From: Amphiscolops sp. MND2022
Lineage: Eukaryota
Direction: 5' to 3'
DNA length: 64,000 nt
Assembly (NCBI GenBank): GCA_964187785.1
Contig: OZ076415.1
Location: forward strand, 51,026,001-51,090,000
This document shows, in pieces, positions 22,011 to 58,989 of this stretch. The notes under the pieces are model-generated. The model was not told where the DNA came from, searched no databases, and was given only the letters and a program-made list of their open reading frames with translations. Both the position numbers and the translations under genes were made by a program. Each line of letters begins with the position of its first letter. Position 1 is the first letter of the stretch.

Positions 22011-22020
22011 CTGTAAAACA

Positions 22021-33772: not shown

Positions 33773-34522
33773 AAATTGAAAAATTATCTCTCGGGAATTT
33801 GTGTTTCTGTGGAGGAAATTGAAAAAAAAGAGATTCAACAGGTGTTTATGTTGAGTGATAACAATCAATATGAAACTGTTCCATATAGGAGTGGTGGTGT
33901 TCGAGGAAAATATGGGAGGTATTTTCTATTGAGGCTGAAGCAATTGGAAGTGTAACAAAACTACCCGGGTTGGCCCTCTTACTAGATAGCATCTTGGCAG
34001 TCTTGGCAAGATCTTGCCAAATTCTTACTACATCTTGGCAACCATGGATCCCATGGCAAGATTCTTATTAAGATCGTACTAAGATAATACATTATACCAA
34101 GATCGTTTCTTATCACGATGGACAAAATTATAAATAACACTATACCTTCGGTACGAGCAGCAGCAGAGTCTCAATATAAAGGCTCATTTCACCCAGTAAC
34201 GACTATTTCCACACGTTTTCATAATCAAAATGCTTCAACCTGCTAAAACAAATTTTCACGCAAAAATGTGCAGAAAATTACGATAACGTATTCTGGTTTC
34301 CGAAATTCTGACGAGAATCCTAATAACTCCTCGCCTGTTTCAGCAGCCATGTTAATGCTGGAAACGGCTGGCATTGCCCCAGTTTGGGTAATGACTCTCC
34401 TCGAGGCTGACGCCGTTGTTGGCGACGGTTTTGCAATTGATTGATCAATTTAATTAGTGCCTCCCTAGATAAAAGGCGTGAGGACTCTTAGGAAATTTTT
34501 CTTGGAAACATGGCTTTCTTGA

Positions 34523-35567
34523 TGTTACCAACATTGACAGAGGTGTTCGCATTTTCGAAACGTACAGTTTTGGTCGGTGTGAGCGTAGCGCTAATGGGAG
34601 GTTCCAAGACTTCGTCATTGAAATTAGGTCTTTTTTCCAAACTTGAAGACTTTATTGCCATTATAAGCTCTTTCTGAGATCGCTCCAAGAGCGTTTTTAA
34701 CTCTTCAGTTATTTCCTTTCTCAGAGAAGCTTTCAAGTTTTCAAAAGATTGGTCCACTTGAGGTACAACTCTACTGGTTGAAGAACTAGGTTCTGAATCT
34801 ATTTCCTCCCCTATGACGATACTACTGACCCTGAGGAGGTTTGCTGACTGATCTTTATCGGTCTCTTCTATACTCATCCCTGCTCTCCTTTTCTGGCTCC
34901 TTGTAGACATCTTGGCTTTGAAAATGAAGTTTTGAAGATTTTATTTCAGAGTCCAAAACAAAATTGACAAACAAAACGTTATGAAAGATAAAACAGCATC
35001 AAAGATTAAAGATTAAATTCTCAAAGCGTCTCAAGTATATATACCTTCCTAACATCACGTGACCACGCGCGCGTTGCAAAGATCGACAAAAAGAATCCCT
35101 CATATCCGGTATTCTCACGATCATATCACGTCCGGCGTCCCTGACGCTGCGCCTAGATTCAGTAGAACCATACTTTATGTGAACAAGACTTGATCATAAT
35201 TTCCTTTTACGGTAGAAAATTCTTTAGTGGAGAAAAATGTTTGAATAACAATTTCCATTAAACCGGAAGTAGGATCTTACATAATTTCGTTTTTATCGAA
35301 ACAACCAACTTTGACTCCATAAAGAGCGGGAAAACTTTAAATCCGCAGGAAGTGATCATTAAATTTTGCGGGAACATAGAAAGAGAAAACCTAGTTGTCT
35401 GCGAGACAAGAGACGAGCAGAGGTGACTCATTCATTTGTGTGATGTTAGGTAAAGCACAAAATTGAAGGATTTATGGTATTTTATGAGTATCTCATTTTT
35501 AGGAAAAGTATGAAATGAATTTTCAATTACAACAAATTTTTAAACCTGGAAACGAACAACGTTTTAT
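34523..35567 (-). mobile_element. LTR of the MSTRSQ family, truncated by the assembly gap
   Basis: Ends ...GGTAACA at 34523 and is colinear with 56815-57800. Contains ORF MSTRSQKRR (34910), TATATATA and a TCACGTGAC box. No PBS follows. Confidence 0.8.
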
Positions 35568-35767
35568 NNNNNNNNNNNNNNNNNNNNNNNNNNNNNNNNN
35601 NNNNNNNNNNNNNNNNNNNNNNNNNNNNNNNNNNNNNNNNNNNNNNNNNNNNNNNNNNNNNNNNNNNNNNNNNNNNNNNNNNNNNNNNNNNNNNNNNNNN
35701 NNNNNNNNNNNNNNNNNNNNNNNNNNNNNNNNNNNNNNNNNNNNNNNNNNNNNNNNNNNNNNNNNNN
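35568..35767. other. Scaffold gap (200 N)
   Basis: Run of N; the true length is unknown and it probably hides retroelement internal sequence. Confidence 0.98.
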
Positions 35768-35796
35768 ATCGGGTGGGTATGTCCTGGGTTGTGGTA

Positions 35797-35809
35797 ACTC
35801 CTGTCACCA
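35797..35809 (-). promoter_or_regulatory. Primer-binding site
   Basis: TGGTGACAGGAGT immediately after the LTR end ...CAACACA; identical to 56802-56814. Confidence 0.8.
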
Positions 35810-37719
35810 TGTGTTGACCGTGATTAGGGAGCAAATCACTTGGTTCAACTAGTCTATATCTATACTCCGCGTTTTCTGCATCCTCGTCGTTGGGACCACG
35901 ACGCACGTTGTTAGGCGGTCTTTCTGTCAGCGTATCGATTTTAGAAGTCAGGTTTTCTATTATCTTCAGAATCTCGCGCTGTCCGACTTCCGCGTCTTTG
36001 ATTCTTTTACTTACAGATTTTTCTATCTTTTCAGATAATTCCGTAAAATCCTTATCGGACAAACTAGCAGCGTTTTCAGTTCTCATGCTAGAAGATTCAG
36101 GTTCGTCTAAAGAGTTCACAGGGGAATCCCTTCTGGCTTTTCTTTTGGAGCTACGTTCTGGCATCTTACTTAGGCTTGATAATTCTCGATTTTCTTTTTT
36201 AAGGAAATTAGAGCAAGTTCTCAAGTGACAAAGTGTGACGTTTCAAGATTTTTAATTATCGTTAAACGAAAGATAATTGTTTCGCAAAATAACAAAATTC
36301 AACTAAACATGGCTTCTAGCTCGCATTGTATTTATACTTTCCATCCCGGAAATCGGGGAAAAGACACGAACATACTTCACATTTTGTTCAGTCCGGCGTC
36401 CGTCCGAGGCAGGGAAACAGGAAGTTCAGTTCCGCTTTGTCGAACTCAGGCCTTCAGCTTGTTCATGCTTTCCGAAGAAAGCACGCGCCCACTTCCGGCC
36501 TTAGTTGCGACTCTGCTTCCCTTCGCCTCTGATCTCCCGCCTTTTCAGGACGCCGAACTGAAAAAAATTATCAAGACACGCGCAATGAGTCACTGAACAA
36601 GGTTGATTAACTGCACAAATTTGGAAAAAATGATGACAACCAATTTTCCTTTACAAATAATTCTCTAGATTAAATAAATCAGCAACAATTTGGATGAAAT
36701 TAAACCTGAATCACACATTAAGTTTTAAATGAAAAGGGTAGAATTGCTTCTACAGTATTTACGGCTCTGATTTTTGGTCAAGATCACGAAGCCTGGCCCC
36801 AGGCCATAGTCCGGGACGGACAAATTTGTTCAATGGATAAAGCAACTATTAATTATAAACAGCATCAGATACATTGTTCAGAAAGGTATTTAATGTAATT
36901 AAACGGCAACAGATTCAGGGGACAGGATATACATGTTATTAACACTTGGTTTGATATTCAGTACTAAATCTTTGGTCCAGGCTGCGGTTCAGGCCTGTTT
37001 ATAGATTAATCAAAATTTACATGTAAAAGAACGTTGTATGTGATATTTTAAACGACGATATAGTTTAAGATCATAAATAATTTTCTCTAGATTCATTTCG
37101 AGACAAAGTTACATGATAGCATCATCATCTTTCACTTTCGTGATCGATTTATCGTATGTAATTCTCAGGCCGCATCCCAGGCCACGGTACGTGATACTCT
37201 ATTAAGTTAGCACAGAAATCTCAATCGTTGGTATATTTGCACTTGTATTGTTAATAAAACACTGCACTAGACATTAGTTCATTTACATGTATTCACTATA
37301 ACGCGCGCTTGCATATTAGTTCACTGAGTTTATAATTCTCAGGCTGCCTGCCAGGCCGCCGCTTCAGTGCGAGTATTTGAGGCCGGCTGTCAGGCCTCAG
37401 TTCCGCCTTCGATTTCTTAGTTCGTTCACTGAGCGGTGCAATTCGATTATTTTTATTACATAGTTTTGTATTATTATTAACTGCACAAATAGCTCCGTTT
37501 TTCCGTAAGTACGTGTTTATATAAGTGTACATTATTATGATAATAATACTAATATGCATATATTTATTAATTTAACTTCAAATTTATATTGTTTAACTCC
37601 TTTGTTTCTGATTGTTTGTCCGCTGTCTATTTCCTCTTCTTTTGTTCTTTTCCCAATTTATTCTTCGAAGACTGGGTTGTGTTTGTTGCAATACTCGCAG
37701 CTCAGGCGGGGCTGTGACA
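35810..37719 (-). mobile_element. 5' LTR (~1.9 kb) of a related subfamily
   Basis: Termini TGTCACAGCCCC (37719) and ...CAACACA (35810), followed by the PBS. ORF MPERSSKRK (36164) reads in frame through the PBS (QHMVTGV) to the gap. Confidence 0.75.
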
Positions 37720-37901
37720 ATGTTCACTCTCACTTCATGCCGGGAATGCAACGTAGTTTCTTCACACTGAGTTACGTTTGGCTGCTGCTGCTGCTGTTTT
37801 TTCGTACTGTGAAAAAAAAGCCATGCATGCTTAAAGTGTGAACGGGTCGCCGAAATGAGTGAGCGAAGGCGGCGGCAGTACAAATGCGTGAACACAACAA
37901 G

Positions 37902-40262
37902 TGTTACGACTTATATCCTGGTCGTTTTGCGTTGAGCTTATCCTAACTGATCTAGTGGGGGTGTAGAAACTCCTAGGTTCATTTTCCATTCCCTCTTCAA
38001 CATTCTCTCTAATATTCTCTCTTGTTTCAGGTTTCAAGAGTTTCATCATTTCCTTTTGGGATTCAATTAGGAGATTCTTAATCTCGGAGGTAATTTCCTG
38101 CTTCAGAGATGCTCTCAAACTTTCAAGAAGGCTATTTTCAATCCTGGGGGATTTTGGTTTTGAAGGCCCCGCGGTACTAACGTCTTGTTCTGGAAAACAA
38201 GGATCTTCTCCTACTACTGGTGAAACGAAACCATCTATTTTCCTGTTGGATGTTCTTTCTCGTCTGACTTCGAGTTGTAGACATTTCGATGAAGAAAAGA
38301 TTTTTCTGATGATTTGAATTTCTTTTCAAAGTTTTCAACAAAGTTGAGTTAGAAACGAGGTTGAGACAAACAAGTTTAAAGCAACTGATTATCACAAGAG
38401 GCAAAAGACTGAGTCCCTTAATCATCAAGTTTCACCGTATTTATACCCTTCCCGCATCATTTGATAACAACTATAATCCCTAATTTTCTTCGAACAATTA
38501 ATCTTTTCCAGTTTTATCGATGAAAAAATCACGAAGTTCCCAAATTTGTGTCGATATTTCGTCAATTTTTGAGACACGGCAAATTTAATCTAGCATTAGT
38601 CATCAAACATGATCATATGATTTCATCCCGGCGTCCTTTTGCTTCCTCCCGAGCAGGAAGTAGATATTACTTCAGTTTGTCAAACCGGAAATAATTACCT
38701 GTTTTGCTGCTTCAGTTCGCGAGAAATTGACGCTGAGATGACGCTGACGTGAACAACAAATACCTGATTTTGAAATTCGGTTTGATCAAAATGCTATGAC
38801 TAATTCCAAAGCAGGATTATCTAAACGATGCTAGGACGATATTTTATGAATTTGGACTCATTCTTTTTGTTAGGAATAGAATTAACAAACATGGTATTGA
38901 GACAATACACCAATAACAAATTTAGCATGTCGCGACAAGTGCGACAAATTCCATAAAAGTAACAGCAACATCTGTTTGATAGCAACGGCAACATAAAGGG
39001 TTTAATGGATAGCAACAATGAACTGGTATAGAAATATGATCACAATCATAATTATAGAATAGCGTCTGGAATCATCGAGTACAAAAATGCAAAATATACC
39101 GAAATACATCTTCTGTACAAAATACACTTTAATTGAGGCTGTAAACTGTGACTTCTTGGTTATTCTACTATGAAATCTCGTAATAAAAGTGGCTTACGCA
39201 AGAAAACTCCCTTATTGTTAAGAATACATGACGGTTAATTGACGCGAATTTGAACTATCCTATACGCGTTGATTACGCCTTAAGTCAGATCTTTAAATTG
39301 TGGAAATATTAGCAATACGCTTGTTTTACAATTTGAAATAGCCTGCAATTATCTTTCCCTAGGAAATAACGGCCTTAGTGCGATGAAAAACCTTGACTGG
39401 TGTAGTGAATTCATTCATTTTGTCCGATTTCATAAATTTGTCAACGTCATGTCGACGTGTTTTCTTTGCAGACTTTTGAGCTTCATAAACTTGTCAACGT
39501 CATGTTGACGAGTTTTCTTGGCAGAGTAGAGATTTTGACTATTTAGACGCAATGGTGGCGAGTATTTTAGAAATGAGTCTCTCGCTAGCTGCCGGAGCAG
39601 TGACGTCACAATGGCGGTAAATTGGAATGATTTCTAGTAATTTTATTAGTATAGGCGGAATATTGGAATGATTTTCTGGTACGCATATGCGAGGCAGTGA
39701 CGTCAATTGGTATACCTTCAAGTTTGTCTGCCTCTTACTGACGGCAAATATTCAAGCATTCTTATTTTCTCCGCTGCCTTGTTCACTCAGCGTAATATTG
39801 ACGTCCTAAATCACACTAATTGTCATTCAAAGCGTAGTTAAACTGCCTTTCTAAGAAAAGGCTTAAATCCTTCGACGTGCCATCTCAATGTATTTTTCAT
39901 TTTAGATCTGATTTATGTTCTTTCGGGAGATGACTTTGACTACGTCTTCATTTAGATTAGGCTATGGTTTCTTTATATCGAAGCGTGTTTCAATTTAGTT
40001 TTCAGGTGGCGAATGTTATTGACTTGACCTGACAAAAACGTCTCAACCGGAAATGTGAGAATCATTTTGGCATATTCATTCGTTGTAGCTAGTTTCATTT
40101 GAAGATTCCGTTGATCAAACGTATTTTTGTTTTCTTAGTCACAGTTTATTTGTTACTTTTAATAGTTAAAGTAAGCTTTTGCGAACATCGCAGTGCAGCC
40201 GTGGCCTCTCCCGAAGCCAACTTTTAAACACCCACAACCCAGTCCGGGAGCGGACTGTGACA
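37902..40262 (-). mobile_element. Solo LTR (2361 bp)
   Basis: TGTCACAGTCCG...GTCGTAACA termini and an exact 5-bp TSD ACAAG (37897-37901; 40263-40267). Carries a broken MSTTRSQ...RASLKQEITSEIKNLL ORF. Confidence 0.9.
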
Positions 40263-41500: not shown

Positions 41501-44500
41501 CCAATCATTCTATATGAATTGTTTTTGGAGATAGAACGCAGTGAATCTACGACATACCATGTTTGCCTAAACTTCTGCGACCCTCTGCTCATCCACATTC
41601 CATTTCATGAATTTCATGAGCTTTCGAAAATGAAAGCACTTGATGATACACTCTATCGCATTGAGAGGCTCAAATATACCGAGTATCATGAATTGTTGTT
41701 TGTCCTAAATCGACAAAACGTCTGTTACCAAGTTAAGCCTAAAAACATACACAAACACATCGTATATGTTGATTTGCCAGTGACGTCACAAAACCATAAA
41801 ATATATGTTTTTCTCTTAGTTGTGTTCGATGTTCAGTTATGAAGTACCCTACAGAGAGAGGCTGAAAGAGTTGTAGTTTTAGGTCCAGAAACAACAACAC
41901 CTAATGAAAAGAATTAATTGTCCATTCTGAATTAAGGATACAAGTCAAAACATCGAGTTGAGCTTTGAATGTAAATCGAGATTGCGAAAGAGCGGTATTG
42001 AATGATCATCTCTTTGAGTCGAAAAAGCGGTTTTGTCAAACATTTATGTGGGATATAGCGTAGAAGCTAAAAATCGGGATGCTTCAATATTTCATTATGT
42101 TTTTTAAATGTAATGTTGTTGAATGCGATTGTTCTACGTTAAAAGTTTCTGGATTTGTATTGTCTTGCTTGTTTGGGAAGCTTGTGTTTGTATTTGTAGA
42201 TTCCATTTGTTCTTCTACCATGGAAGATTTTACAGCCTAAATAGGTCCGCGGAAAATAATTGGAGAGTCATTACACAATGGTGTTGTTGTGGGATCAGTG
42301 ACATTACAAATATTTTGAGGATCCAGTTGTGTTTGTAGGTAAAGATGAGGTTGAGTCATAGATAAGATATCTTACTGGTTGCTTTATCTTGATTGCGAGG
42401 AGAATGTGAAGTAAGAACTCATAGGCAGACGAGAATGAGATACTTTAAGTTGTGGTTCAAGTGTTTTTGAATGATCGCTGGTGAAGTTATTTTAAGTTTG
42501 TGAAAGTTGGTGTTGTAGAGATTTTCAAGAGTAACAACAGATTCAGTTGAAAAATACGTTCTGAAGACATGACTGTGGAAACGAGTAGTTTGTTTAAGAA
42601 TATAAATCGACAGGACTGAAACTTTCATATTCGTCAAGTCTGAAGTTTAAAGGACATCTGTGAAGACTTGGATTGACTTTTGAAAAATTTCGAATATGTG
42701 ATGGTTCATCAGAATTGATGGAGGATTCATCTGATGGTTTTAGTGGTGGTATACAATTGTAATTGATAGGAAGTTTTGGTAGCGTGTAACTCGCGTTTCT
42801 TTAGGTCATCACGGGCATCATTTTGGTCATTGACCGTTTCAACTGTATTGGTGCCATGTGCAATAGAACTAAGTATTTGAATATTGTATGTACCATAATT
42901 TTTGAAGATTACATAATTAGGAAGTGTTTGTTATTGATTGTATGAGAGTTGAAAGTACTTGTACAAACAAAAGTATGAAAGTAGTTACCACATTGTCTTA
43001 AGATGTAACATGTGTAACCAAACAATGCAATAGAGCATGAAAACTATTTGGTGGTAAAATGGGCAGATATGTTAAGAAGTCTATCATGTAGCCCAATACG
43101 AAGTGTAGAATATGGATCACCTTCAAGTATATTGCAACATAGTTAGGAGTATTAGTACAATGAAAGACTAACTGACAGCTTTTCCAAGTAATTGAAGTGT
43201 TGTATAAGGAGAATTTGAAACGAGAATTTCAAGTCAGCTTTGGTCAAGATCTGCTTTTGAAAAAATACCAGCATTTTAGGATTTAAACGTATTAGGTCGT
43301 TTTGTAGTTTACTTCGAGCAAGAGTAAACATAAGAGGAGGTTTTTGTTTGAGAGGTTCAGTACGAAGAATATAAAAATCATGATCATCTGAAAATGGATC
43401 AAGTTTTATAATGTTACAGTGCTAAATACCACAGTTGGGCGTTTTGTACAGACTAGTCTTGTAACGAGTTGATTGTTATTATTCTCATTTTTATGAAGAG
43501 TATTAAGCTCTTGAACAGCCATTGAGCGAAATACACGTTTAAGAGTGTAGTCTATTTTGTATCAAAATGGGGATCATAATCAAGAGTGTCAGAAATGGGT
43601 GAGACGTTCAGAGCTGGGGAAAAACTTTGATTATTTGAATTAATAAAAGCTAATTTTCCTGAGATCTTTTAATTGGAGATTCTGTTGTCCTGTTTTCATA
43701 TTAACACCTCTGTTACAAAGATATCGGAGTGTTTTGCAAAAAACGCTGGTCTATGTTTACTACAAAATTTTTGAACATGGGGGGAAAATTCAAAGCGTGA
43801 AAAACTAGGTTTCTGTGGGGTGTGTGTATTTGGAGCAACTATATAAGGTTAAGTTGTTCCTCGTTTGCCTCAAGTGGTTTGAGGTTTATTTGGAATTGAA
43901 GAGTATATGAAAGAGTCAGTTTCCATGCAATACTCTTCTCCAATGTTTGTCATACTTCCTACAAAACCTTATGACGTAAATTCTGAACAAATGTAATCGC
44001 TAAAAGACTGTCAGGAATCCTCGGTGTGGGTTTGCAAAAACCTTCTGCAAAAAACACGCGAATTTACGTTCATCTATAATTTTTTTTGATGTGTCGTCAT
44101 TCTTAGTTCCACCAAATAAATTTACTTCAAAGTGGTGATGTGCAGGGCAGTCAAGATGAGGATTTTTAGCGATCGTAGAGCCATTCTTCGTCAGCTGGCA
44201 AGATTGCAAAAGAACCAGTGTACATAATATTAAATTAGTAAGTAGTGAAGAGTTTTTGAACGTGTTCTAGCTTTTGTTGAAACAAGGTTTTTCTAAAAGG
44301 TGGTAAACGTTTGATAATAATAAAAGCGTTCAATATGTTATTGTTTGTTCCATCAGAGTTTCCAATTAGCGTATCTACATTCTAAGGGTCAAGAGTAACA
44401 ATTAGAGGTATTGTGTTAAGTTTACAAACTCTTTTATATACGTGTCCTTGCATTAGCGTCACGTTTGAGAGGTCCAAAAGGTTTGGCCCTTGCTCTTATA

Positions 44501-44802
44501 CAAACTCGAGCTTGAACTTCAGAAAGTTTTATGCTTGCAGGAGCTTCAGTACAATGTTTAACGTTTAAGAAATTGAACTTTCCCACAAATGTTCACAGTC
44601 ATAATAGGAGACCCCAATATTAACAATAAGTAGGGTCATCGGATGGAAAATAATTATCAGAATCAGTTTGGTAAAAAAGTAGAAGATGTATAATAAAAGG
44701 TGCATGAAACTTTTATAGGTCCGTGTTCTAAAAGATGATATCTTTGAGGTTAAAACATATGTTACAGAACATAATTTTGTCCAATGTTAAGTCCGGATAG
44801 GT

Positions 44803-44968
44803 AGGATCACGGTTGTACTCAATTTATGCAAATTTGAATGGAGCAGTTGTGGTCTTCTGTTCAAGTTTGGCAAATTGAAATACCTAGGATCACGGTTGTA
44901 CTCCATTTATGCAAATTTGAATGGAGCAGTGGTGGTCTTCTGTTCAAGTTTGGCAAATTGAAATACCT
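44803..44968. repeat. 83-bp tandem duplication
   Basis: 44803-44885 and 44886-44968 differ at only 2 positions. Confidence 0.92.
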
Positions 44969-45889: not shown

Positions 45890-46330
45890 TTCGAATGGGT
45901 TCGGTTTCGTCAGAAAAATGTCGGGGTCGGAAGATTATCTAATACCCAAAAGCGTACAAAGTTGTGTCATAACTTCATTGGTGCACCCGGATCCGCAATC
46001 AGTTAAAATGCATTTGGGAGTTGTAACGGCTGCTTGCCCTTATCCTGTACTGAGATTTGACAAGCTTTACGCCGCCCTGTTCTGTTGCTTAGTACTGTGG
46101 ACCGTTACTACACGAAACCTGATTTTCTTGTTCTAAAAGACTTTAACTTTTGGCTGGTAGGTCCGATATGACCCGTAGGATCTCCTGGTGATCCTCTTTG
46201 CATTTGTTTGGATCCGATGTGATCCGTCACAGACTTCCCTCACTGTATCTTCACTCGCTCCGGCTCTCTAAGTATGAGAGTAGCTACTTAGTCGCTCTAA
46301 CTGTAGCGAAAAGTTGTGAAGATTGAGAAG
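45890..46330 (-). mobile_element. Possible decayed LTR-ORF fragment nested in the Gypsy copy
   Basis: Composition breaks from the flanks; KEDHQEILRVISDL resembles GQREILKIIENL of the 35810 LTR ORF. Confidence 0.3.
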
Positions 46331-49300
46331 TTGAATATTTAGTCTCTTGAACCTAACACCCATTTTGACTATAGCTCTTAAGTCGTTCATTTCTCGATCA
46401 AATAACGGTATACTTATCGTTTACAATTCTACAGTTAATATTCATCAAAATGTGTTGTATGAATAAATGACATTTAAAGAATAATTTGAAGGTATTGGCT
46501 AAGTAAACAAACAATGTGGTGGTTTTGGCATGTTGGTCAGGTCGGCTAGAAAGTATGTTTACACAAAGTAAATTTTATTAATTTCAACAGAGTTACATTT
46601 CCTTCAAGGTCATATGAGAAAATCACATAATAATTTGTCTATCAAAATTGGGTTATCATGGGGTTCAACTTAGGTCTGTCTCGGTGTTAATTGCTGGCGC
46701 CAACAGGAGGACCAAATTTGATAATCCAGTGATGTAAAAAAATATTTGACAGCCGTTTTTGCAGTGTTCGAATTTTTAGGTACTGTGACAACAAAATGAC
46801 TGATCGCGTCGACAAGGACACGTGTATATGACTGGTTTTGGGAAGGTGGGTTTAAAAGATCTTTGTTTGATTATAGAGACACGATAGTTAAAAAGGAGCT
46901 CTCTCTGAGAAAAATATGAATTGGAGCTGCATTTAATTTCATAATGACATGTTTGTTTCGTTAACATCCAAAACAGTGTTGTATGAAAATGGATAACTGT
47001 TTTTCAAGAAGTGAAATGTAATAAAAATGAGCGAATGTACTGTTTGTAGTTTTAATACCAGTGTGACAAGGGTCATGACGTTTTGTGAAAGCTCTTTTGA
47101 AAAGACGAAATGGAAACAAATTTCATTATTTTTTTCAAATAAACTAGAAGTGGCATTAAGGTTTGTTTCAGAAAAGAGTTTGTTTCTTTTTGTGTAAACT
47201 AAGAATGACTGTTGTGTCATCAAAGAGAATTTTAGAAAAGAATTTGTAATGTGCGTGTAAAAAAGGAGAACCAAGTATGACAGGTGTAAGAAATTCCCGG
47301 TTAGCATTATGACAATGCCAGTGATAGATAGTTTTGACGATAGCGTCTTGGGTTTCTTGGTGTTTGACTGTGTGTAACGCGAATGAGAAATCGTCAGCTA
47401 AGAAAAACCTTGAAAATAGTTTTTATAAGAACTATAAGAACATGTACTATAACAAGCAAATCACGGTCGTACTATAACAAGCGAATCACCATCGAAGCTG
47501 GAAGGTTTTGGTTCTTGAGGAATCAGTATGCAAGAGTAGTATGACATGACTTTCATTTTAATGTCTTCATTCGATTGGAAAAGGTAAGCGACTAGTCCAA
47601 TTAAGGAAGCGTCAACTGTAATAAAGAAATGGTGTTTGGCGTAAGGAAATGTAAGTTCTGTATCTGCGTCTTCAGACATTTAAAACAATATTTCAAAGTC
47701 AAAGGTCCAGTTCCAAGGAGTGTTTTCAGGTAGTAACTCATTAAATGGTTTGAGATTGGTCTGTAGTTTTTCACAGATTGGTCTGTAGTATGACAATTGT
47801 TTTCAAGTTTGGTACGCGTTTAGGTACACAGAAGTCTCTAATGATAGGTAATTTGTATTGTTTGCGAGCACGAGCTAATTGAAAGCAAGAACTTCTTTCG
47901 ATCATGATTCGTCAGATTGTTCTTTAGTTGAACTCAAGAGTCTATCAACGAGAACACAATTAATAGAGTCAATTTTAGGTAAAAAGAGGAGGATTTAGAC
48001 AAGTTGTTCCATGGTTGGATTCATCTTGTGCAGAAGAACAAACAAATAAATTTGTGTTACATTTCTTCAAAAAGGTTGTTGAGTTTTTTTTCTTCATTGA
48101 AAAGGTATTCTAGAAGGGCGTTGGTGATTAGTTCAACAATTGGTTTGAGAAGTAATATGAACGGAGTACAATTTTTCAAACGTCCTTTTCATGAGTAGCA
48201 TAATTGTTCTTGTGTTTAACTACGAGGTTACAAAGAGTTACATATCCAGTTTCTGTAAGACCAGAAAATTGGAATTATAATTATTCATAAATTCAAGTTG
48301 TCTTTAGAAAAAGGAAAGGTGGGAACATAGCGTGATGTAAATGTGGCAGGTGGGTTGGATGTCATATATGCACGAGGAATATTTGAGAGGTGGTGTTGAT
48401 GTTGCCATACACATTTGGTGTGAAGAAAAGTGATTGTCTGCAGATTATTGTTTTGGAGGTGTTAAATTAAAATTTGATGGTGGAATGGGCTCAGTTAAAT
48501 CAGGATGGTCTACATGAGCAACAATGTGTACAAGTGTATCAATATCATTGATTTGATGATATCTAGGTTCCTCATTTGTGATTGACATTTCTATACAACG
48601 TAACGTATTTGTCCTTGAGGCAGTGTACCAACATGGTTTGTTTTGAATTTTAAACTATAGTTGAACAAAATTCAGGTCTTTGGTCAGTTAAAAGTTTTAT
48701 AAAATTGAAGATTGTACGGCAATTCGTAAAGAAGTAAGTATATGGTAATGTAGGGAAAATTTGGTTGCAAGGAGTTCGAGTTCAATCGAATTTGTGTTCT
48801 AGAAACAATTTTGTATATGCATGAGACGTATGGATAATCTTTGGACGTATAGATAAATCTATGGATAAGAGACGAACTCAGTAATAATTGATTGGTCTTT
48901 AGAATGATAATGGATTTGTAGTGTAAAGTCTTGAATGTTAGTGTTCTTTAATGCACTGTTTATTTTCCTCAATGATAGGAGTCCAAGAATGTTATATTCT
49001 TTGTCTGCAACCGCAAAAGGAATTATAAATTGACGCGAATGATCTTGAATTGACATATTCAAGGTAATAGTTACAAATAGTTAGTGAAATGTAGGCTCTT
49101 CAGTTTGGCCGGAACTGTTAGTGTTTTTGAAACATGATTTGTTTTATCATTGCAAGGTATGAACGGAAGTGTTGCAATTGTGGGATAGTTGACCACAGAA
49201 ATGGAAGCACCACTGTTTAAAAAGAATGATATTTCTAGTCGTGTCGGATAGTCAAATTTGTTTTGGTTTTCCTGTGAGTGTGTGTGGAACGACTGAAACC

Positions 49301-50454
49301 AACTTGGTGGAGTTGAAGCCTTTGCCATTTCAGTAGGGTGAAACATGTGTATTTCACAGTTGATAGAATCATTTGATGTTTGTGGTTGAATGGAATTACC
49401 TTTGATTTTTGAATATGAGCAAGAGCGAGATCTAGAAGATCTAGATTCCCTTGGTCTTGATGGAGGTCATGTTCATCGTGACCATCAGGGGAATGTGACA
49501 ATAGAGAATAACATTGTTAACATTGTTTCTAGTTTTAGATTGTGATCGAGATCTAGAGTTTCCAGAATCTCTTGTTCTTGAAGTAGGTTTTTTGAAAGTA
49601 GTGAAGTTTGAAATGCCACATCTCTTCAAAATGAACGTGGTCTAAAACGAGGATGGGAATCACGTCTATATGGTGATCTAAAGGAAAATCAAAAAGGTTA
49701 ACAATATAATCGAGAATCTCGTCTGTAATTGTCATATCTAGATTTGTTGCACTGTGGAGGAGTAATGTTTCCTTCATACTTGTACCGGTCTCTAGAATGC
49801 GGGCAATGTCTGCTTTTTCACTATCACGGAGTTGTTGTTATCTCGAGAAGATGAGCCAAAGTACTCAACAAAAAAAGATTTGAGGAGATTTTGATCTTGC
49901 ATATGCATCACGTTTGTCTTCATCATCTCGATGTTTTTTGAATCATGCTGAAATATAGTGATTTGTTCGATGAAAATATGAACACTATATTTCATAAGTA
50001 GGATTCTGTTCGTTATTACAGTCTCGTGGTTGAGTAATTATAATTAATTTCCGTTTGTTCAAAGCAACCTTCAAGGGTAAGATCATGTGTACGAAATTTC
50101 TCATTTGCTGTATATTCAGCGTCGACTAACAAGTGTATCAAAGGGTATTGAAGGTTCTAAAACAATAGAAGTGTGTTTTACTTGTCGTTTGTTCGCAAAA
50201 TCTTGAAGGTTTTTGTGAATTCTCTGGAGAAAATTCCCTTACACTTTAATTTCATAGTAGAAGCATTTTCATTGGACCTGTTATTTTAACTAATTATTGA
50301 ACTTTACTGAATTTTTCAAAAGTCTTAGCATTACATACACGGAAAGGTGACTTCTAGTTGGTGTTCACAGATATCGTGGGTTAGAGATAGGGATTACACA
50401 TAAGATATAGCGTGTGTTGAGCCTCAAGTTGGTTGATCTTTAGAACAAAAATAA

Positions 50455-50620: not shown

Positions 50621-51529
50621 AGAGTCTTGCCATTCAATCTCTTGCAAGGTATCAAAAAAAAGTTACATCCGAACGATGAAAACGTTATATCCAAACATTT
50701 AAACCTTATATCCGAACGCCGAAAAAACCCGAAGGTTACAAAATAAAAAAACCAGTTTGTCGTTAAATCCGCTGTGCGTTAAATCGGGTTCGCGCCAAAA
50801 GAGTTCCAGGGCGACCCTTTTCTAAAATTGAAATTTTCTCCAAGAACTGTTTTATCCGGTATACGTTAATTCCGTAATTCATTATATCCGGTTTGCAGAA
50901 AATCTGGTATGGGTTGAATTATTGTCGAAGGAGACTCCTTGCCGCTTTTAACACCTTTCTAAAATTCTCCAAGAAACGTTATATCAGGTATACCAACAGC
51001 TTCTAAAGCATATAAACTTTGTCACTTCGACCGTCCTAAAAAGCTACTACTATAGTCGTCTCTTTCTACGAACGCGCCGACTAAAAACTGGCAGTTTATC
51101 TTCAAACAACATTTCCTCTGTAAACCTGTTGTTGAAGCTGAAGTCCATGCTGATAGCTATCAAACACAATAAAACTAAAGAAGAAAATGCAAACGCAAAT
51201 CGAGTTACATTCAATGAGTTATCAGTGTCGCAGTCTATCTCTCGGTCGTACTTTCTTGGGAAGTCCCCCGAGATTTTAATCCGCCTGTTTCTATACTTCA
51301 CCTGGATAGACCGTCCACTTAGGACAAAATTTCAATCGGCCTGAGGAAATCTCTTCGGCTCAGTCACGGGTCATTGAGGTTCTTTGAGACTCTTTTCTCA
51401 ATTTTGGTTGATATTTACTCAAAGCTCGTCTCGGATAAACCTGAATTTTCACGTCCAGGCTGACAAACGACGTTTAAGTCCTCCGGTGTTACAGCGGGTG
51501 AATCCTTTGTCACTTCTCTCTTATGGGTT

Positions 51530-52861
51530 TGTTACGAATATTAAAGGGAGAGTTTGCGTTTCCGAAACGTACAGTTTTGGTCGGAGTTAGAGTTACGCTG
51601 ATGGGAGTTTCTAGGATTTCGTCGTTGTTATTAGGTCTGTTTTCCAAACTCGAAGACCTAATTGCTGATATGAGTTCCCTTTGAGACTGTTCTAAGAGAG
51701 TTTTTACCTCCTCGGTTATTTCTTTCCTCAAAGAAGCTTTTAGATTTTCAAGAGACTGGTCTACTTGGGGCGCAATTGCGCTAGTCGAAAAACTAGGTTC
51801 TGGACTTACTTCTACTCCTATGACGACACTGCTGACCCTCAAAAGATTCTCCTGATGGTTGTCTTCGACTTCTCCTAAGCTCATCTTTGCTTTCTTTTTC
51901 TGGCTCCTTGTTGACATCTTGATTTCGAGATTGAGGTTTCAAAGATTTTATTTCAGAACTTGAAATTAATAAACAAAACGTTATAAGAATGAGAACAATA
52001 ATCGAGATTTAAAAAACTCTAGGAAAACCTCAAGTATATATACCTTCCCCTATGTCACGTGACCACGCGCGCGTCGCAAAAATGGCGGAGGAATGTCTCT
52101 TACACCCGGTAAAATGGCAATTATATCACGTCCGGCGTTCCTGACGCGAAACCTAGCTCTATTAAGCTGTATTACATGCGAACAAGGTATCCATACTTCG
52201 AAACACGCGTAAGTGTGACGTAGAATTGAGCCGGTACGCGGCGTAATAATGACGTTGGTATATATTCCGGTATAGTTCTAGCATTTAATTCAGTATTGAC
52301 ACTAGCATTATTTGGTCACAAGTATCGTGTGACGTGGTTGTGACGTAGACTCTATTCTTTCTTTTCAATTAGTCGTGACGTAGTATTGACGTAATTCGTT
52401 CTTTCATGTGAGCAGTGCTAATACTAATCTAGCGTAAACAAACACCAGCGCGATCATTGCGATGAACGATATTCTTAACTGACTATTATTGACGTTAGAC
52501 ATGCGGCAACGCGAGCGACGTGCTTACACTTTACTTAGAGTGTGCTCATAGTAATTGTTATTGAAGTAAATTAATACATATAAATTCTATTTGTGACGTT
52601 CGTATTCTCGTTTGTGATGACAGTTTAACAACGCGTTGATTTTAATTTTTCCTCGAATCTTTATTTTAGGATTATGTTTAAAAGATATTCCCAAGTTATT
52701 TCGTTGTATTGTTTTTAGTTCGTTTAGTTTTCGCTCAGTTTGTTTAGTTTTAGTTCGAGTTGATCAATTCCAACAGTACTTAGCTTTCATTAGGCATCCG
52801 TGTCCTCTTCTGAATTGTATCTGCCGACATGAACAAGCCAGTCCAGGAGCGGACTGTGACA
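51530..52861 (-). repeat. 3' LTR (1332 bp, internally deleted)
   Basis: Highly similar to 56815-58822 but missing blocks equivalent to about 57476-58024 and 58040-58160. Confidence 0.9.
52035..52600. promoter_or_regulatory. Putative LTR promoter: TATA box, GTCACGTGAC E-box and TGACGT cluster
   Basis: TATATATA at about 52035-52042; GTCACGTGAC at about 52054; eight TGACGT hexamers between 52216 and 52599. Confidence 0.55.
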
Positions 52862-53477
52862 GGGCCACTGTCATGGGTCTGACGTGCCGTGACTGGGTGG
52901 CGCAGAAGGGGGAATTATCTATCCAGGTTTGTGGAGAGAATCTGTTCGTTGTTATCTCTCTGGTTTGTGCATGGCCAGCTCGTCTTGGGTAAGTCAAATC
53001 ATTTAATGAGTTGTTTTCTCTTAATTTCACCCGACGTAATGGCCCCGGTGGAGTAATAAAGAATTCTGCTGGTTCTGAATTTTCCTTGTTTCTTTCTAGT
53101 AAGTCTCGTGTGTCTAGCACGCTCTCTTTCTCTTCATAGTAATCGGAAGACGACGGCTCCTGCCCTTGAACTATAAATCCTGATTGGCTTGACGGGCTAG
53201 CTGGGTTAGATAGGAGGAATTGTTTATTAGATAATAACGAAATGAGGCTGGCCTCTTCACTGTCAAGTTTAATCCGTTTGCAATTTTCTTGAACTATTTC
53301 CATTGATGAGTCCAATTCAGAGTCTGCGCTAACTGTTACGTCTAATGAAGAGATTGAAGGGTTGTGCATTTCTCTCCTTCTCGTTGCGTTCGCCCTTGGT
53401 GGTTGAGAGGGTTCACCTTCTGTTTCTTTCTCAGATTTGCTGGGTGAGACTAGGTCGATCAGTTCAATGATTTCCAT
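52764..53477 (-). CDS. Ser/Glu-rich accessory ORF (237 aa) reading into the 3' LTR
   Basis: Open frame from MEIIELIDLVSP; low complexity; no recognisable domain. Confidence 0.4.
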   Translation of the reverse strand: MEIIELIDLVSPSKSEKETEGEPSQPPRANATRRREMHNPSISSLDVTVSADSELDSSMEIVQENCKRIKLDSEEASLISLLSNKQFLLSNPASPSSQSGFIVQGQEPSSSDYYEEKESVLDTRDLLERNKENSEPAEFFITPPGPLRRVKLRENNSLNDLTYPRRAGHAQTREITTNRFSPQTWIDNSPFCATQSRHVRPMTVALSQSAPGLACSCRQIQFRRGHGCLMKAKYCWN

Positions 53478-53694
53478 ATTTGAGGATTGTTTCGTTGCCG
53501 TTAACTGCTTTTAATTTTCACTTAGTAAAAATGAATTGTTTATCAATTTTGACTTCCTTGATTTATGAATTTTCCTTCATTTAGATTGGCTATTCGGATT
53601 TCAGAGCAGATGTTAATCTTTCCACTGCTTATTGGCTTAACTTGTTTTTGACGAAAGCATGACGTTGATTTTTGTTTTTAGAATTGTTGTTTTG

Positions 53695-55358
53695 ATGACT
53701 GAGGAACAATCTGCCTCGTTTGCGCCTGTGTCGCGTGGACTAGCTAGTGGAAAAGAAACACAGTATGGTTTTTCAGAAGGTGAAATAGTAGTTAGTGAAG
53801 TTGAGGCGCCTGTTATTTCTGCATGTCCTGGTTAGTATAACTTGAAGTCCATCTAGCCCAATAACATCGTATTTTCGTCGATTGATGAGATCGCTAATCA
53901 TACGTGTTGACTAGGTAAATAGCGCTATCTTACTTCTCTCTTTCCAGGCCCTACTGTGGTCTCAGACACTACCCAGCGTTCTCCCCTTGGCACCCCTTTG
54001 AAATCTACCTCGTCAAGGACTGGACAGGGAGAACCTCCTCAGATTAGCGAGGAAATATCCCCACGGGAGATTCTGACTTCCGTCGCGAGACAGATAAAGA
54101 GACAGGTGCAAATGACCGGGGGAAGGGCGTGACCAGAAATGAGGATAGCGAGGAAGATACTAGCCAGGACATAGTTAGTTGCAGGCCCCAAACTTCAAAA
54201 GGAAATTCCAAACGCAGTTAGTATTTTAGTAATTTATATGATGGTATAGATTACCTCTGCCATATAAGTAGGTTCGGAATCGTTAGTCTGGTTTTTTGTT
54301 TTTTTTTCTAGGTTTGCCCGAATTTCTGTCGTCGAGTTCGGATGAAGAGAGTGTTTGTGATGACGATCGAGGCAACCTTGATAAGCCTTTGCTTTCTTCA
54401 AGAGGGATGAGGACTCCTTCGCCTCTAGTGCGGAGGACATCTAGGTCAACGTCAGCCTCTGAGGAAGTGCTTCGAAAACGTTTTGATGGTTGGTGAGGTA
54501 ATATGTTTTTTTTAATAAGTGGGCGTTTGTTTCATGTTGTTTTTTTGTAGCTGCTGAAGATAGTGATTCCCTTGGTGGTACCCCGGTAAAAACGATGTCT
54601 GCTCAAGTGGTGAGCCTCGGGCGGCACATAGCGTCGGAAGTGGAGTCTTCTGCAGTGGATCCCATCCATTCGAGTTAGTGTTTTTGTGTGTTTCTGTTCG
54701 TGATTCCCCCGGTTTTATCTTCTTTTGTTATGGCAGTATGTTTATCAACAGTTGTTTTAATATAGGTTTTGCTGAGTTCGCTAACAAGATTGGTGATTCT
54801 CTGGAAAATTTGGGGGTGAGCCCCAAGAAGAAGAAGAATTACAGCTCTCGCAATTATCTTCGTAAGGACATGGTTGCCGGCAATGAGATTCTGGGCGAGT
54901 TTGTGTCTGGGTCAAAGAACGGGTTGTCCACCTATTTCTTCTGCACCATGTGTGAACGAGACGTGTCGATGGTGAGTCGTGGAGCGAATGAGTTAGTTCG
55001 GCACTTCACTTCAGATCGTCACTGGCAACGCGACGTAACGTATCGCGTCCACAAAGGGATGCCTGTATTCAATCAGTTGCGCCAGCTGATTACCCTAACT
55101 GATGAGGAGCTGAGTCAGTACCGTAGCCGCCCTTTCAAAGAGAAAGCCGTGGGGTATCTTTTCCCTGAGGACAGACGTCCTAAACACAGTGAGATCCGTT
55201 CTCGAGTGCCATTCCTGACGATGGTTAGCTGTTTGACGGAGGTCTGGCGAGGAGGAGGCAGTTACACCATGCTTCGTCGTTTGTGGGGCTTCTTCTGTGC
55301 TTCGCTAGCTGAGACTGATCCCTTGTACCGCGTAACGTGGAATAAGCCAGAGACTCTG
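53695..55358 (+). CDS. Spliced antisense gene with a C2H2 (BED/U1-like) zinc finger; one 1-bp frameshift; 3' end unresolved
   Basis: Exons 53695-53830, 53948-54216, 54312-54488, 54551-54673 and 54766-55358. GT-AG introns of 117, 95, 62 and 92 bp, all phase 1; four of five donors are GTTAGT. The last exon has FFCTMC-x16-H-x5-H. Confidence 0.7.
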
Positions 55359-55763
55359 GTTAGTTTTGGTTTTGGTTCTGCTTTTCTTTCTTAGCTGGAG
55401 CAATTAGGAGCAATTTAGTTATTTGTGTGTGGTCTCTCTTCCTTTTTTTGATGGAGTTGAGTGATGTTGGAAAGTTATCATGTTTTGGTGAGAGGTTGTC
55501 CTCGAGGCAGGGTGTTTTGGTATTTCACTTCTGAATGGAGGGATTGTTGTTGTGGTTGGTTCATAATTGCCGTCATTGTGGTCGTTGAGTTGGTGACTTT
55601 GGTTGGGTTTCTTCGCGTTGTATTTCGGTTGTGGATAAGGGTCGTTTAGTTGCCGTGTATTCGTTATCGAGGTCAGGGGTCCCTGGTATGCGGTCTTTGT
55701 ATTCAGAGATGGTGTCACTTGTGTATGCTGATGGGGGGTCTTGAATGTTGTATGCCCTCGCAA

Positions 55764-56666
55764 CTACTGTTTCCCCGAATCGTAGTCGCGGCATTTTGAG
55801 TTTTTTGATTCGTTCGCTTCTGGTGCTGGCGTTATCTTGTCTGGTTTTGGTGTTGTGCTGGATTGTCTCTTGGGTCTTGGGTCGTTTGCGGCATTGGCGC
55901 CGTTCCAGCAATCTTCCGTTTTGTGTGGCTTTCCACAGGTGGCACATTGTGGTCTGGGAGGACGTGTATTGTTGGTCGGGCCAATTTGTTTCCTTGTTTC
56001 CTGCCATTTGTCTCGTTTGAGTTTTCGGCATTGGGCTTTGTAGTGTCCGTATCGTGAGCAGTAGAAGCAAAATCCTCGTCTGTTTTCTTTGTTGTGCGGA
56101 GTGTTTGACGTTGGGGCGACGTTGTTAAGGGGTACTAGCGTTATGTCATCTGGCGCCCCTAGGACATTAAGTCGCATCTCCCTTTCAAGGTGAAGGACTA
56201 TTTCATTAAAGGGTTTATCTTCCAGATATGCTCGATTGAGGATCTTTTGGACATGGTCGGGCATCTTGGCATATATCGTTTTATCGATAAACTGTTGTGC
56301 CTCAGATCCAAATGCCTCTTTCGCTGTTTTTTGGAGGGAGTCCAGAAATTCGTGTAGTTTTTGTGTTGCTGGGTCGAATTTAAGCGTGTCCCATTTGCAA
56401 CGGGCTTTTGCTACTGAGAGGTAGTCTCCGAATCGTCGTTTGAAGGTTGTCATGATATATTCTAGGTTGTTTTTCTTGGTGTCGTCAAGGCTGCCGAAAG
56501 CTTGTAAGGCCTCACCTCTTGAAAGCGAATGAAAAAAATTGATCCTTTGTATTTCTGTTAAGTGTGGGTGCATCCTAATGTTGTTTGTGAAGAGATCCTC
56601 AAACAACTCGAATTTTTCATTTTTGCCATCAAAGGTTGGTAGGGACGTCGTGAGGGCCTTGGGCAT
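55764..56666 (-). CDS. gag: Gag (capsid plus two zinc knuckles)
   Basis: LPTFDGKNEKFELFEDLF capsid-like start; CFYCSRYGHYKAQC (CX2CX4HX4C) and CATCGKPHKTEDC (CX2CX3HX4C). Confidence 0.9.
   Translation of the reverse strand: MPKALTTSLPTFDGKNEKFELFEDLFTNNIRMHPHLTEIQRINFFHSLSRGEALQAFGSLDDTKKNNLEYIMTTFKRRFGDYLSVAKARCKWDTLKFDPATQKLHEFLDSLQKTAKEAFGSEAQQFIDKTIYAKMPDHVQKILNRAYLEDKPFNEIVLHLEREMRLNVLGAPDDITLVPLNNVAPTSNTPHNKENRRGFCFYCSRYGHYKAQCRKLKRDKWQETRKQIGPTNNTRPPRPQCATCGKPHKTEDCWNGANAANDPRPKRQSSTTPKPDKITPAPEANESKNSKCRDYDSGKQ
55800..55806 (-). promoter_or_regulatory. -1 ribosomal frameshift slippery site
   Basis: TCA AAA AAC in the Gag frame gives A_AAA_AAC. The -1 frame stays open to 55573 (KLKMPRLRFGETVVARAY...). 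Confidence 0.65.
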
Positions 56667-57202
56667 TGGAAGCGTTGTATTGGATTCTGTTTGTTTTGAT
56701 GAGGATGGGACAGCTTCGGGTAGGTAGGTTCGTTCTGTGAGTGGTGACTGGCTCTGAGTACGGGTTTTGGATTTTTCCGATGATTATTGGGATCGGGGAG
56801 GACTCCTGTCACCATGTTATGAATATTAACGGGAGAGTTTGCGTTTCCGAAACGTACAGTTTTGGTCGGAGTTAGAGTTACGCGGATGGGAGTTTCTAGG
56901 ATTTCGTCGTTGTTATTAGGTCTGTTTTCCAAACTCGAAGACCTAATTGCTGATATGAGTTCCCTTTGAGACTGTTCTAAGAGAGTTTTTACCGCCTCAG
57001 TTATTTCTTTCCTCAAAGAAGCTTTTAGATTTTCAAGACACTGGTCTACTTGGGGCGCAATTGCGCTAGTCGGAGAACTAGGTTCTGGACTTACTTCTTC
57101 TCCTATGACGACACTGCTCACCCTCAAAAGATTCTCCTCATGGTTGTCTTCGACTTCTCCTACGCTCATCTTTGCTTTCCTTCTCTGGCTCCTTGTTGAC
57201 AT
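56558..57202 (-). CDS. LTR-initiated ORF (MSTRSQ...), probable N-terminal part of Gag
   Basis: ATG lies about 390 nt inside the LTR and the frame reads through the LTR end and PBS (NMVTGV). One extra A in the A5 run near 56775 would fuse it to the Gag frame. Confidence 0.7.
   Translation of the reverse strand: MSTRSQRRKAKMSVGEVEDNHEENLLRVSSVVIGEEVSPEPSSPTSAIAPQVDQCLENLKASLRKEITEAVKTLLEQSQRELISAIRSSSLENRPNNNDEILETPIRVTLTPTKTVRFGNANSPVNIHNMVTGVLPDPNNHRKNPKPVLRASHHSQNEPTYPKLSHPHQNKQNPIQRFQCPRPSRRPYQPLMAKMKNSSCLRISSQTTLGCTHT
56802..56814 (-). promoter_or_regulatory. Primer-binding site (tRNA-Leu-like)
   Basis: TGGTGACAGGAGT directly after ...ATAACA. It is one mismatch from the TGGTGTCAGGAGT complement of metazoan tRNA-Leu 3' ends (from recall). 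Confidence 0.75.
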
Positions 57203-58822: not shown

Positions 58823-58989
58823 GGGTTTTCTCAGGTATTGTGCTTAGGCATAAAAGACTTTGATAGCAAAGTGTTGACTTAGGTAAAATTTTCAACTGTT
58901 TGTATTTGATTTTTTTGTTTTTTTTTCTGTATGAAAAAGTTTTAGAAGTTTCACTAAGATATTTCCTAATCCCGCATCAGATTTAAATT

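Follow-up and report, generated by a model that had tools for sequence, protein, structure and literature searches.

An Amphiscolops Ty3/gypsy retrotransposon lineage in which the gag reading frame opens inside the LTR and crosses the primer-binding site

Our results support a model in which the gag frame of a Ty3/gypsy retrotransposon lineage in Amphiscolops opens within the LTR, 103–213 codons before its end, and crosses a tRNA-Leu primer site into the capsid-coding region, with the RNA starting upstream of the LTR ATG and the LTR-coded N-terminus being both translated and exchanged between elements. We give this reading as a whole a probability of about 80%. The starting point was a window of 64,000 nt, the whole stretch of DNA that was analysed (contig OZ076415.1, positions 51,026,001 to 51,090,000); coordinates below are positions within it.

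Five LTR copies in the window carry the relevant minus-strand ATG, at 57202, 51917 and 34910 (MSTRSQ subfamily), 38284 (MSTTRSQ) and 36164 (MPERSS). Measured to the LTR ends at 56815, 51530, 34523, 37902 and 35810, the distances are 388, 388, 388, 383 and 355 nt, matching the roughly 350–390 nt given in a preliminary description of this DNA, which had proposed an ORF in all five. Four are open; the copy starting at 38284 has a frameshift near its start that leaves only 35 aa.

The limits of one LTR pair are independent of the ORF, because the element running from 58822 to 51530 on the minus strand is bounded by paired LTRs and by the target-site duplication (TSD) AACCC at both ends (58823–58827 and 51525–51529). 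This Ty3/gypsy element of the MSTRSQ subfamily has lost pol. Its 5' LTR (56815–58822, 2008 nt) has TG..CA ends and matches the 3' LTR (51530–52861, 1332 nt), which lacks about 0.7 kb of U3 by comparison; the two differ by 4.8% (64 of 1326 sites). A TATA-like box (57320–57327) lies 123–125 nt upstream of the ATG at 57202, where the 129 LTR-coded codons begin (56815–57202, delimited from the ORF, the fold of the sister copy L003 and selection). In order they encode an MSTRS motif with a basic patch, a disordered linker, a helix predicted from the fold of L003, a natural sister (about residues 51–91, about 57052–56930), and another linker. The 13-nt primer-binding site (PBS; 56802–56814), complementary to tRNA-Leu(CAG), abuts the LTR and with its last A reads M-V-T-G-V. 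The remaining gag, with the capsid and two CCHC knuckles (55764–56783), does not share the frame of the LTR part here; the break at about 56.78 kb agrees with the loss of frame previously placed near 56775. Farther along lie part of an antisense accessory gene region (54567–55394, plus strand), which has homologous antisense ORFs in full-length copies and no Pfam match, and a minus-strand sense ORF (52764–53510) that crosses the start of the 3' LTR and ends about 32 codons into U3. The 3' LTR copy of the N-terminal ORF (51510–51917, minus strand) extends 6 codons into flanking DNA. Twelve other ORFs in the window had no Pfam match.

The remaining copies, all on the minus strand, are less complete. 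The MSTTRSQ copy is a solo LTR (37902–40262) with CTTGT flanks. The MPERSS 5' LTR (35810–37719) matches the LTRs of a full-length copy at 95.8%, and its family was checked against twin LTRs; the ORF from 36164 spans 118 codons within the LTR and leads into an in-frame PBS (35797–35809), after which an assembly gap (about 35568–35767) cuts the copy. Thus, as had been described, both PBS-bearing copies (35.8 and 56.8 kb) read MVTGV in frame. The 3' part of an MSTRSQ-like LTR (34523–35560), also cut by the gap, has an ORF (34910–34488) that runs out into flanking DNA.

The elements are LTR retrotransposons of a Ty3/gypsy lineage. Pfam matches in another natural sister, L033, give the pol order PR-RT-RH-IN (protease match weak, E 0.02), and Ty1/copia proper is ruled out because integrase does not precede RT. 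The predicted capsid lies near dArc/PEG10 at Z about 10 (best Z 10.4 to dArc1, rmsd 4.9, 155 aligned), only a middling match because the fold is helical; it is encoded entirely downstream of the LTR–PBS junction, and Gag has two CCHC knuckles. BEL/Pao elements have DUF1759-type Gags with three CCHC knuckles and BEL-type RT and protease domains. DUF1759 matches are present here, but the two knuckles and the lack of BEL-specific pol families among the Pfam matches led us to reject that class. The PBS is complementary over 13 nt to the 3' end of a genomic tRNA-Leu(CAG), and the stretch before the 3' LTR is purine-rich in MV.TRS copies, not purine-rich in MSTRSQ and MSTTRSQ, and short or mixed in others.

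The long LTR-start layout is real and lineage-wide in this tRNA-Leu(CAG)-primed lineage. With limits set by twin LTRs, 18 of 19 full-length genomic copies have 103–213 codons of gag, counted from its ATG, encoded within the LTR, and the frame continues through the PBS. The twin LTRs are 96.7–100% identical, are flanked by 5-bp TSDs and end exactly at the CA|TGG junction (18 of 19 elements); no second LTR was found for L218/L219. When junctions were taken in positional order on C1 (89 of 90, L159 being dropped), the gag frame was open for 90 codons or more upstream in 58, whereas the other two frames gave 1 and 0 such junctions. Upstream sequence was also open at 34 of the 40 junctions whose gag is open for 300 or more codons, and in some families whose downstream frame is short the upstream frame is missing as well. 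No family among the 89 junctions starts gag only at the junction. Genome-wide, the exact codons at four degenerate sites are kept in 2905 of 3045 junction matches, and tandem junction repeats were found at 0 of 259 loci in the Amphiscolops genome. The frame is retained across deeply split Gag branches. Other full-length copies, which the preliminary description had named as a check, bear out its reading of the frame: the natural sisters L002, L003 and L006 have an uninterrupted frame from the LTR ATG into gag, and natural copies of at least nine subfamilies begin gag in the LTR and cross the PBS. Counts of gap length were set aside as support for the ORF because they are circular, open copies having been selected.

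Codon comparisons indicate that the LTR-coded part is under purifying selection at the protein level. Over 40 disjoint random pairs drawn from 81 copies, dN/dS was 0.14 with dS 0.69, so that this proposed check too favors a selected protein; the ratio was 0.04 over codons 1–12 and 0.07 over the helix, and 0.09–0.40 across dS bins in six families. Third-position bias was 29/23/84 in the LTR-coded part versus 18/18/16 in the leader. Synonymous constraint is limited to the LTR end and PBS, with dS 0.08 over the last LTR codons and PBS versus 0.5–0.9 over the rest of the LTR-coded part; the dual coding and replication constraint once suggested for U5 and the PBS therefore holds at that end and not beyond it. 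An untranslated frame, left open as a by-product of base composition or of U5 conservation at the DNA or RNA level, would fit a piece that is mostly predicted to be disordered and has no Pfam or Atlas relative. Such a by-product is very hard to reconcile with the dN/dS at this level of synonymous divergence, with the absence of the third-position bias from the adjacent leader, or with an open frame that is specific to gag (58 versus 1 and 0) and kept across deep Gag branches, and we regard it as extremely improbable.

Sequence signals place the likely start of the genomic RNA about 90–140 nt upstream of the LTR ATG, so that the LTR part is likely translated as the Gag N-terminus. Four subfamilies have a TATA box at −120 to −172 relative to the ATG; no conserved TATA was found within 300 nt in the MV.TRS, MNP..GT, MS..LRN and MPE[RK]SQ subfamilies. 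The 90 nt upstream of the LTR ATG contain 2 ATGs where 48.5 are expected (55 copies, not independent). Pol II would very probably start about 25–35 nt after the TATA, and ribosomes would scan the ATG-poor leader and start at the LTR ATG. In the 51.5–52.9 kb LTR we recovered the order described before, TATA (52042/52040), AATAAA (51952) and ATG (51917). However, AATAAA (at −35) occurs in the MSTRSQ family only, MPERSS has ATTAAA at about −91, and MSTTRSQ and MTTRSQ conserve neither signal. AATAAA was thus rejected as a general R/U5 marker, and the ORF, earlier placed in U5 on its account, is assigned to R-U5, with a border that AATAAA does not fix. The want of any conserved poly(A) signal to fix R, together with subfamilies that have no obvious TATA near the ATG, would also suit an ATG in the U3 of the packaged RNA, with gag made from a separate, longer mRNA with an upstream promoter and the genomic RNA starting downstream. 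This arrangement seems quite improbable given that the leader shares its ancestry with both halves of the LTR-coded part (rho 0.83–0.91) and is decoupled from U3 (0.20–0.37), a break lying upstream of the ATG, and that in one family breakpoints concentrate about 130 nt upstream of the ATG, where TATA and Inr predict the start (TATA+15 to +65). A less remote, although still unlikely, alternative is that the elements produce two Gags: translation from the LTR ATG would yield a long form, acting as a regulatory or minor capsid component, and translation from the junction ATG, by leaky scanning or on an RNA with a second start, would yield a short one. The sequence R-A-C-ATG-G arises at the CA|TGG join, and this ATG, with its purine at −3 and G at +4, is invariant in all 51 aligned Gags, whereas a purine (A or G) precedes the LTR ATG at −3 in only 34 of 55 copies; the capsid domain, moreover, lies wholly past the junction. 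Because the junction supplies an invariant ATG in strong context, a shorter Gag may also be made. Nonetheless, the invariance is no sign of start use, since the integrase end and the PBS impose it; many copies have in-frame and other ATGs between the two starts, and junction-only starters number 0 of 89.

Returning to the model of an LTR-coded Gag N-terminus, we find that this piece has likely been exchanged between elements during reverse transcription, as judged from patterns of sequence relatedness. In 24 copies, distance-matrix concordance reached its minima at −500 and 0, counted from the PBS; another 59 copies gave a minimum at −520, adjoining an Inr-like site at −516. A dip about as deep, at +340 to +380, counts against the model. 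In one family, 10 of 43 LTR breakpoints fell within −537 to −487 (p = 0.009 per nt, 0.038 per informative site), although painted breakpoints are not independent; the signal was weak in MTTRSQ, and no cluster was found in MPERSS (1–2 of 16–24 breakpoints near the predicted start, n = 19). Two of the LTR-coded types, 10 and 11, were each seen combined with three capsid types (2, 5 and 8). The piece has not always moved whole, since breakpoints are frequent inside it (5.9 per 100 nt versus 0.8 in gag), and a pure cassette model does not suffice without further switching, because U3 tracks gag (rho 0.11–0.29) worse than the LTR-coded part does (0.42–0.56). As set out in the relevant part of PMC6894440, an intermolecular first transfer joins R/U5 and U3 of different RNAs. 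By the known course of reverse transcription, both new LTRs would take their R-U5 from the 5' end of a single RNA, and the N-terminal piece would therefore be exchanged at both sides: such a transfer would probably join it whole to the U3 of another RNA and, at the PBS, to that RNA's capsid.

What the LTR-coded peptide does is a more speculative matter. Most of it is predicted to be disordered, apart from a 41-residue helix, and searches of Pfam and the ESM Atlas gave no match above lead level. The coiled-coil-like block described earlier survives as this helix; a heptad test was significant in 12 of 21 representatives overall, but in 0 of 5 from the MSTRSQ, MSTTRSQ and MTTRSQ families in which the block had been noted. 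A motif picked after seeing the data, [TL]R[SN], is found near the N-terminus (residues 1–15) in 16 of 21 representatives, versus 14 of 672 background windows, and is absent from 5; a count of 54 of 55 was set aside as circular, the copies having been chosen by the same motif. The first residues (M-x-T-R-S, L-R-S) resemble nucleosome acidic-patch anchors, described in the pertinent section of PMC9040877 for IE1 (M483-x-T485-R486-S487) and LANA (M6-R7-L8-R9), and might tether the Gag particle to chromosomes. A predicted complex of residues 1–30 with host H2A-H2B scored 0.50 against 0.01 for the best control, weak support that gives no interface (partner pLDDT at least 43; runs agreeing in at least 40% of contacts). 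Passes at 0.60 or below comprised 5 of 78 solved complexes and all 4 passing mismatches (of 180). The calibration covered no peptides, and solved structures exist of complexes similar to the predicted one. We suggest, tentatively and at less than even odds, that residues 1–15 could be an arginine-anchor and nuclear-targeting peptide tethering Gag to the H2A-H2B acidic patch, while the helix would oligomerize Gag. At the sequence level, every 3' and solo LTR contains promoter, ATG and N-terminal piece, with a frame that is open towards the host DNA. A broader and rather doubtful extension is that the LTR is a gene module of promoter, start codon, nucleosome-tethering peptide and helix, in which reverse transcription would reshuffle the Gag targeting domain at the RNA start and PBS, and 3' and solo LTRs would provide thousands of sites with a ready-made chromatin-targeting N-terminus whose frame is open towards the host DNA.

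These findings have implications for annotation and for replication. Because LTRs are treated as non-coding and gag is sought after the PBS, current annotation would lose a quarter to a third of these Gags, and it would also count selected LTR sites as neutral. The layout couples protein evolution to replication, the strand transfer that shuffles promoters here also shuffling a protein domain, and it offers a purely sequence-based route to locating R. Should the first residues prove to be a nucleosome anchor, naturally occurring variants in the lineage could be used to study how the Gag of a retrotransposon gets to chromatin, and host genes would have a source of fusion starts in the many 3' and solo LTRs.

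In Repbase, gag is recorded as beginning in the LTR for some Gypsy entries. A narrow, phrase-matching literature search, whose scope excluded Repbase and GyDB entries and most subscription papers, found no Ty3/gypsy precedent for LTR-coded gag, and the accessible portions of PMC4402516 (Tor elements), PMC13347269 and PMC3601003 contain nothing on it. The HCMV IE1 C-terminal domain, KSHV LANA and the foamy virus Gag chromatin-binding sequence share with our peptide an arginine in an M-x-T-R-S or L-R context within a disordered terminus (PMC9040877, in the section cited), but the resemblance spans only 4–5 residues, binding here is predicted with a weak score, and the foamy virus site is C-terminal and not LTR-coded. 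The recombinant LTRs of PMC6894440 likewise take U3 from one RNA and R/U5 from the other; what is exchanged there, in the part concerned, is regulatory DNA, whereas here it codes a quarter to a third of Gag. With Ty3/gypsy elements (Metaviridae) that have Arc/PEG10/PNMA-type capsids, our elements share PR-RT-RH-IN, the capsid fold, CCHC knuckles, TG..CA LTRs and 5-bp TSDs, but they have LTRs of 1.1–2.5 kb, lengths of about 14–17 kb and antisense accessory genes, and the Ty3 PBS segment adjoins the 5' UTR and is not in GAG (PMC4974528, as excerpted). The closest parallel is Ty1 of Saccharomyces cerevisiae (Ty1/copia, Pseudoviridae), for which the same excerpt places the PBS inside the GAG frame at nt 94–104, so that the LTR end is coding; the premise that gag normally begins downstream of the PBS thus already had a published exception. 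In both, the gag frame begins at an ATG in the LTR and stays open across the PBS. With the 53-nt 5' UTR stated in the corresponding passage of PMC3592414, we calculate about 14 LTR codons for Ty1, compared with 103–213 codons and a predicted helix in a tRNA-Leu-primed Ty3/gypsy lineage here. The layout is thus a much longer form of the arrangement known from Ty1.

The gag start codon of these elements, which are identified as Ty3/gypsy retrotransposons by the order of their pol domains, the fold of the capsid and the two CCHC knuckles of Gag, sits inside the LTR. In 18 of 19 full-length copies, representing nine subfamilies, twin LTRs (96.7–100% identical, with 5-bp TSDs) end exactly at the start of the PBS, and in these 18 copies the gag frame is open from an ATG 103–213 codons upstream of the LTR end. 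The 3' LTR carries the identical open frame in all 18, running 1–84 codons into host DNA. The PBS shows a 13-nt pairing with a genomic tRNA-Leu(CAG), and exact matches to the pattern of the LTR/PBS junction (CA/TGG, read as M-V-T-G-V) numbered 2905 genome-wide, against 0 for the control. Among 89 junctions (90 fetched in order along one contig, one dropped), an upstream stretch of 90 or more codons was open in the gag frame in 58, compared with 1 and 0 for the other two frames; 40 junctions had an open gag, and in 34 of these the upstream frame was open too. The layout in the preliminary description, a gag frame that opens in the LTR and continues through the PBS, is borne out, and its interpretation there is supported in part. 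In several families with the junction (loci L093, L094, L107, L123, L124, L149, L150, L152, L161 and L162), the frames both before and after the PBS are short; these families are probably non-autonomous derivatives using the same primer. The tRNA-Leu 3' arm has 1252 genomic matches, with dense tandem arrays on host contigs C8 (about 35.60–35.64 Mb) and C11 (about 6.00 Mb) of G000; of four loci checked elsewhere, only one contained a full tRNA.

Self-comparison and reading of the window gave five related LTRs, all on the minus strand. The gag-bearing element at 58822–51530 (−; TSD AACCC) has a 2008-nt 5' LTR and a 1332-nt 3' LTR that differ by 4.8%; compared with a full-length sister, it has retained gag and lost pol. 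The others are a solo LTR at 40262–37902 (−), a 5' LTR with PBS at 37719–35810 (−), which an assembly gap interrupts, and a fragmentary LTR at 35560–34523 (−). The positions first assigned to the ATGs, TATA and AATAAA were correct, but the ORF described in all five LTRs is open in four and frameshifted in the solo LTR, and at the 56.8-kb copy the frame is broken shortly past the PBS. The order of signals that had placed the ORF in U5 holds in the 51.5-kb LTR; however, because AATAAA is conserved only in MSTRSQ (subfamilies are named by the first residues of the LTR-coded part of Gag), we place the ORF in R-U5 as a whole.

Selection argues that the LTR-coded part is translated. Across 40 disjoint random pairs from 81 MSTTRSQ copies, it had a dS of 0.69 and a dN of 0.094, a purifying ratio of 0.14 (codons 1–12, 0.04; helix, 0.07; capsid, 0.02), which answers the earlier call for a dN/dS test; other families gave 0.12–0.40 by bin. 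Informative sites by codon position were 29/23/84, compared with 18/18/16 in the adjoining leader. The 90 nt upstream of the LTR ATG contained 2 ATGs against 48.5 expected (55 related copies). The suggested dual coding and replication constraint is real at the junction, where dS is 0.08 and exact codons at four degenerate sites are kept in 2905 of 3045 matches, but does not extend over the rest of the LTR-coded part, where dS is 0.5–0.9. The joining of CA to TGG leaves no choice but M at the junction, and a TGA within the PBS closes one of the other frames.

Because intermolecular first strand transfer joins U3 from one RNA to R/U5 of another, as described in the excerpted text of PMC6894440, breakpoints are expected at the RNA 5' end. 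In MSTTRSQ, which has its ATG at −396 and an Inr-like site at −516 from the PBS, adjacent-window concordance reached its minima at −500 and 0 in a set of 24 copies; in 59 others the minimum was at −520. Painting of 83 copies placed 10 of 43 non-independent LTR breakpoints inside −537 to −487 (p = 0.009 or 0.038, depending on the null). Each of two LTR-coded types is found with a shared set of three capsid types, at arbitrary cluster cut-offs. Weighing against this line of evidence, 19 MPERSS copies gave no breakpoint cluster, breakpoints are also frequent within the LTR-coded part, U3 tracks gag less closely than the LTR-coded part does, and in MSTTRSQ a comparable, unexplained dip in concordance lies at +340 to +380, inside the capsid-coding region. 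A TATA lies 120–172 nt upstream of the ATG in four subfamilies, three of which have an Inr-like T(C/T)AGT 29–35 nt past it; no conserved TATA was seen in four others. There is moderate support, at the sequence level, for a genomic RNA that carries the LTR ATG.

The LTR-coded part may tether Gag to chromatin through its N-terminus, to which we assign a probability of roughly 0.35–0.4. The first 12 codons are its best-conserved stretch, and [TL]R[SN], a motif picked post hoc, occurs near the N-terminus in 16 of 21 representatives compared with 14 of 672 background windows. The M-x-T-R-S and L-R seen here match the IE1 and LANA arginine anchors as numbered in the excerpt of PMC9040877. Structure prediction of a complex with host H2A–H2B weakly supported the tether, scoring 0.50 versus 0.01 for the best control (partner pLDDT at least 43, contact agreement at least 40%) and yielding no interface; passes at this level turn out wrong more often than correct, the score has no calibration for peptides, and structures of comparable complexes have been solved. 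Alternatively, the basic patch could have a plain nuclear-localisation or nucleic-acid-binding role. The LTR-coded part is predicted to be disordered apart from one helix (residues 51–91, pLDDT 79–94). Heptads are not significant in the families for which a coiled-coil-like block had been quoted, though they are in 12 of 21 representatives overall. That the LTR-coded part is a swappable chromatin tether is possible, though less likely than not. Separately, integrase tails at the pol C-terminus end in Y/H-x-L-R at L033, L035, L084, L213, L214, L218, L220 and L224, resembling the foamy virus Gag chromatin-binding site Y537-x-L539-R540, and could be a second nucleosome tether.

Other reading frames accompany these elements. 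A sense ORF of ~250 aa (52764–53510, −; also at L032, L034, L036, L038, L040, L042, L215, L217 and L229) spans the plus-strand priming region, where the tract is not purine-rich, and stops ~30–35 codons into U3, so both LTR junctions are coding; in MSTRSQ and MSTTRSQ it ends in a CxCRR..GRGHGC-like motif. The region separating pol from the 3' LTR carries antisense ORFs (54567–55394, +; L031–L042, L080–L088), which had no Pfam match. Elsewhere in the window, two long stretches, 12000–27000 and 42000–50000, are strongly skewed in GC, at roughly −0.4 to −0.58 and +0.1 to +0.36, and have many short ORFs lacking Pfam matches; they are possibly decayed large elements. An intronless 318-aa ORF at 10020–10976 (−) weakly matches the rhodopsin-family 7TM domain (E = 4.9e-7, slightly below the cut-off).

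A family from a different source that is related to these elements (P0080–P0119; L213:9534–11199) appears to share their layout, with their junction peptide falling at residue 129; it had no match above 58% identity in the host genome. In 15 of 41 of its proteins the peptide occurs in 2–4 tandem copies, 8–17 residues apart, a protein-level pattern that suggests repeated duplication of the LTR-end/PBS join; L213 has a single junction and no twin LTR. A gag that starts in the LTR is already known from Ty1, whose PBS lies within GAG (PMC4974528) and whose leader is 53 nt (PMC3592414), giving an LTR-coded stretch of about 14 codons. A narrow literature search found no precedent for such length or for presence across a deep Ty3/gypsy lineage. 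The LTR-coded part described here is 7–15 times longer than that of Ty1 and includes a predicted helix.
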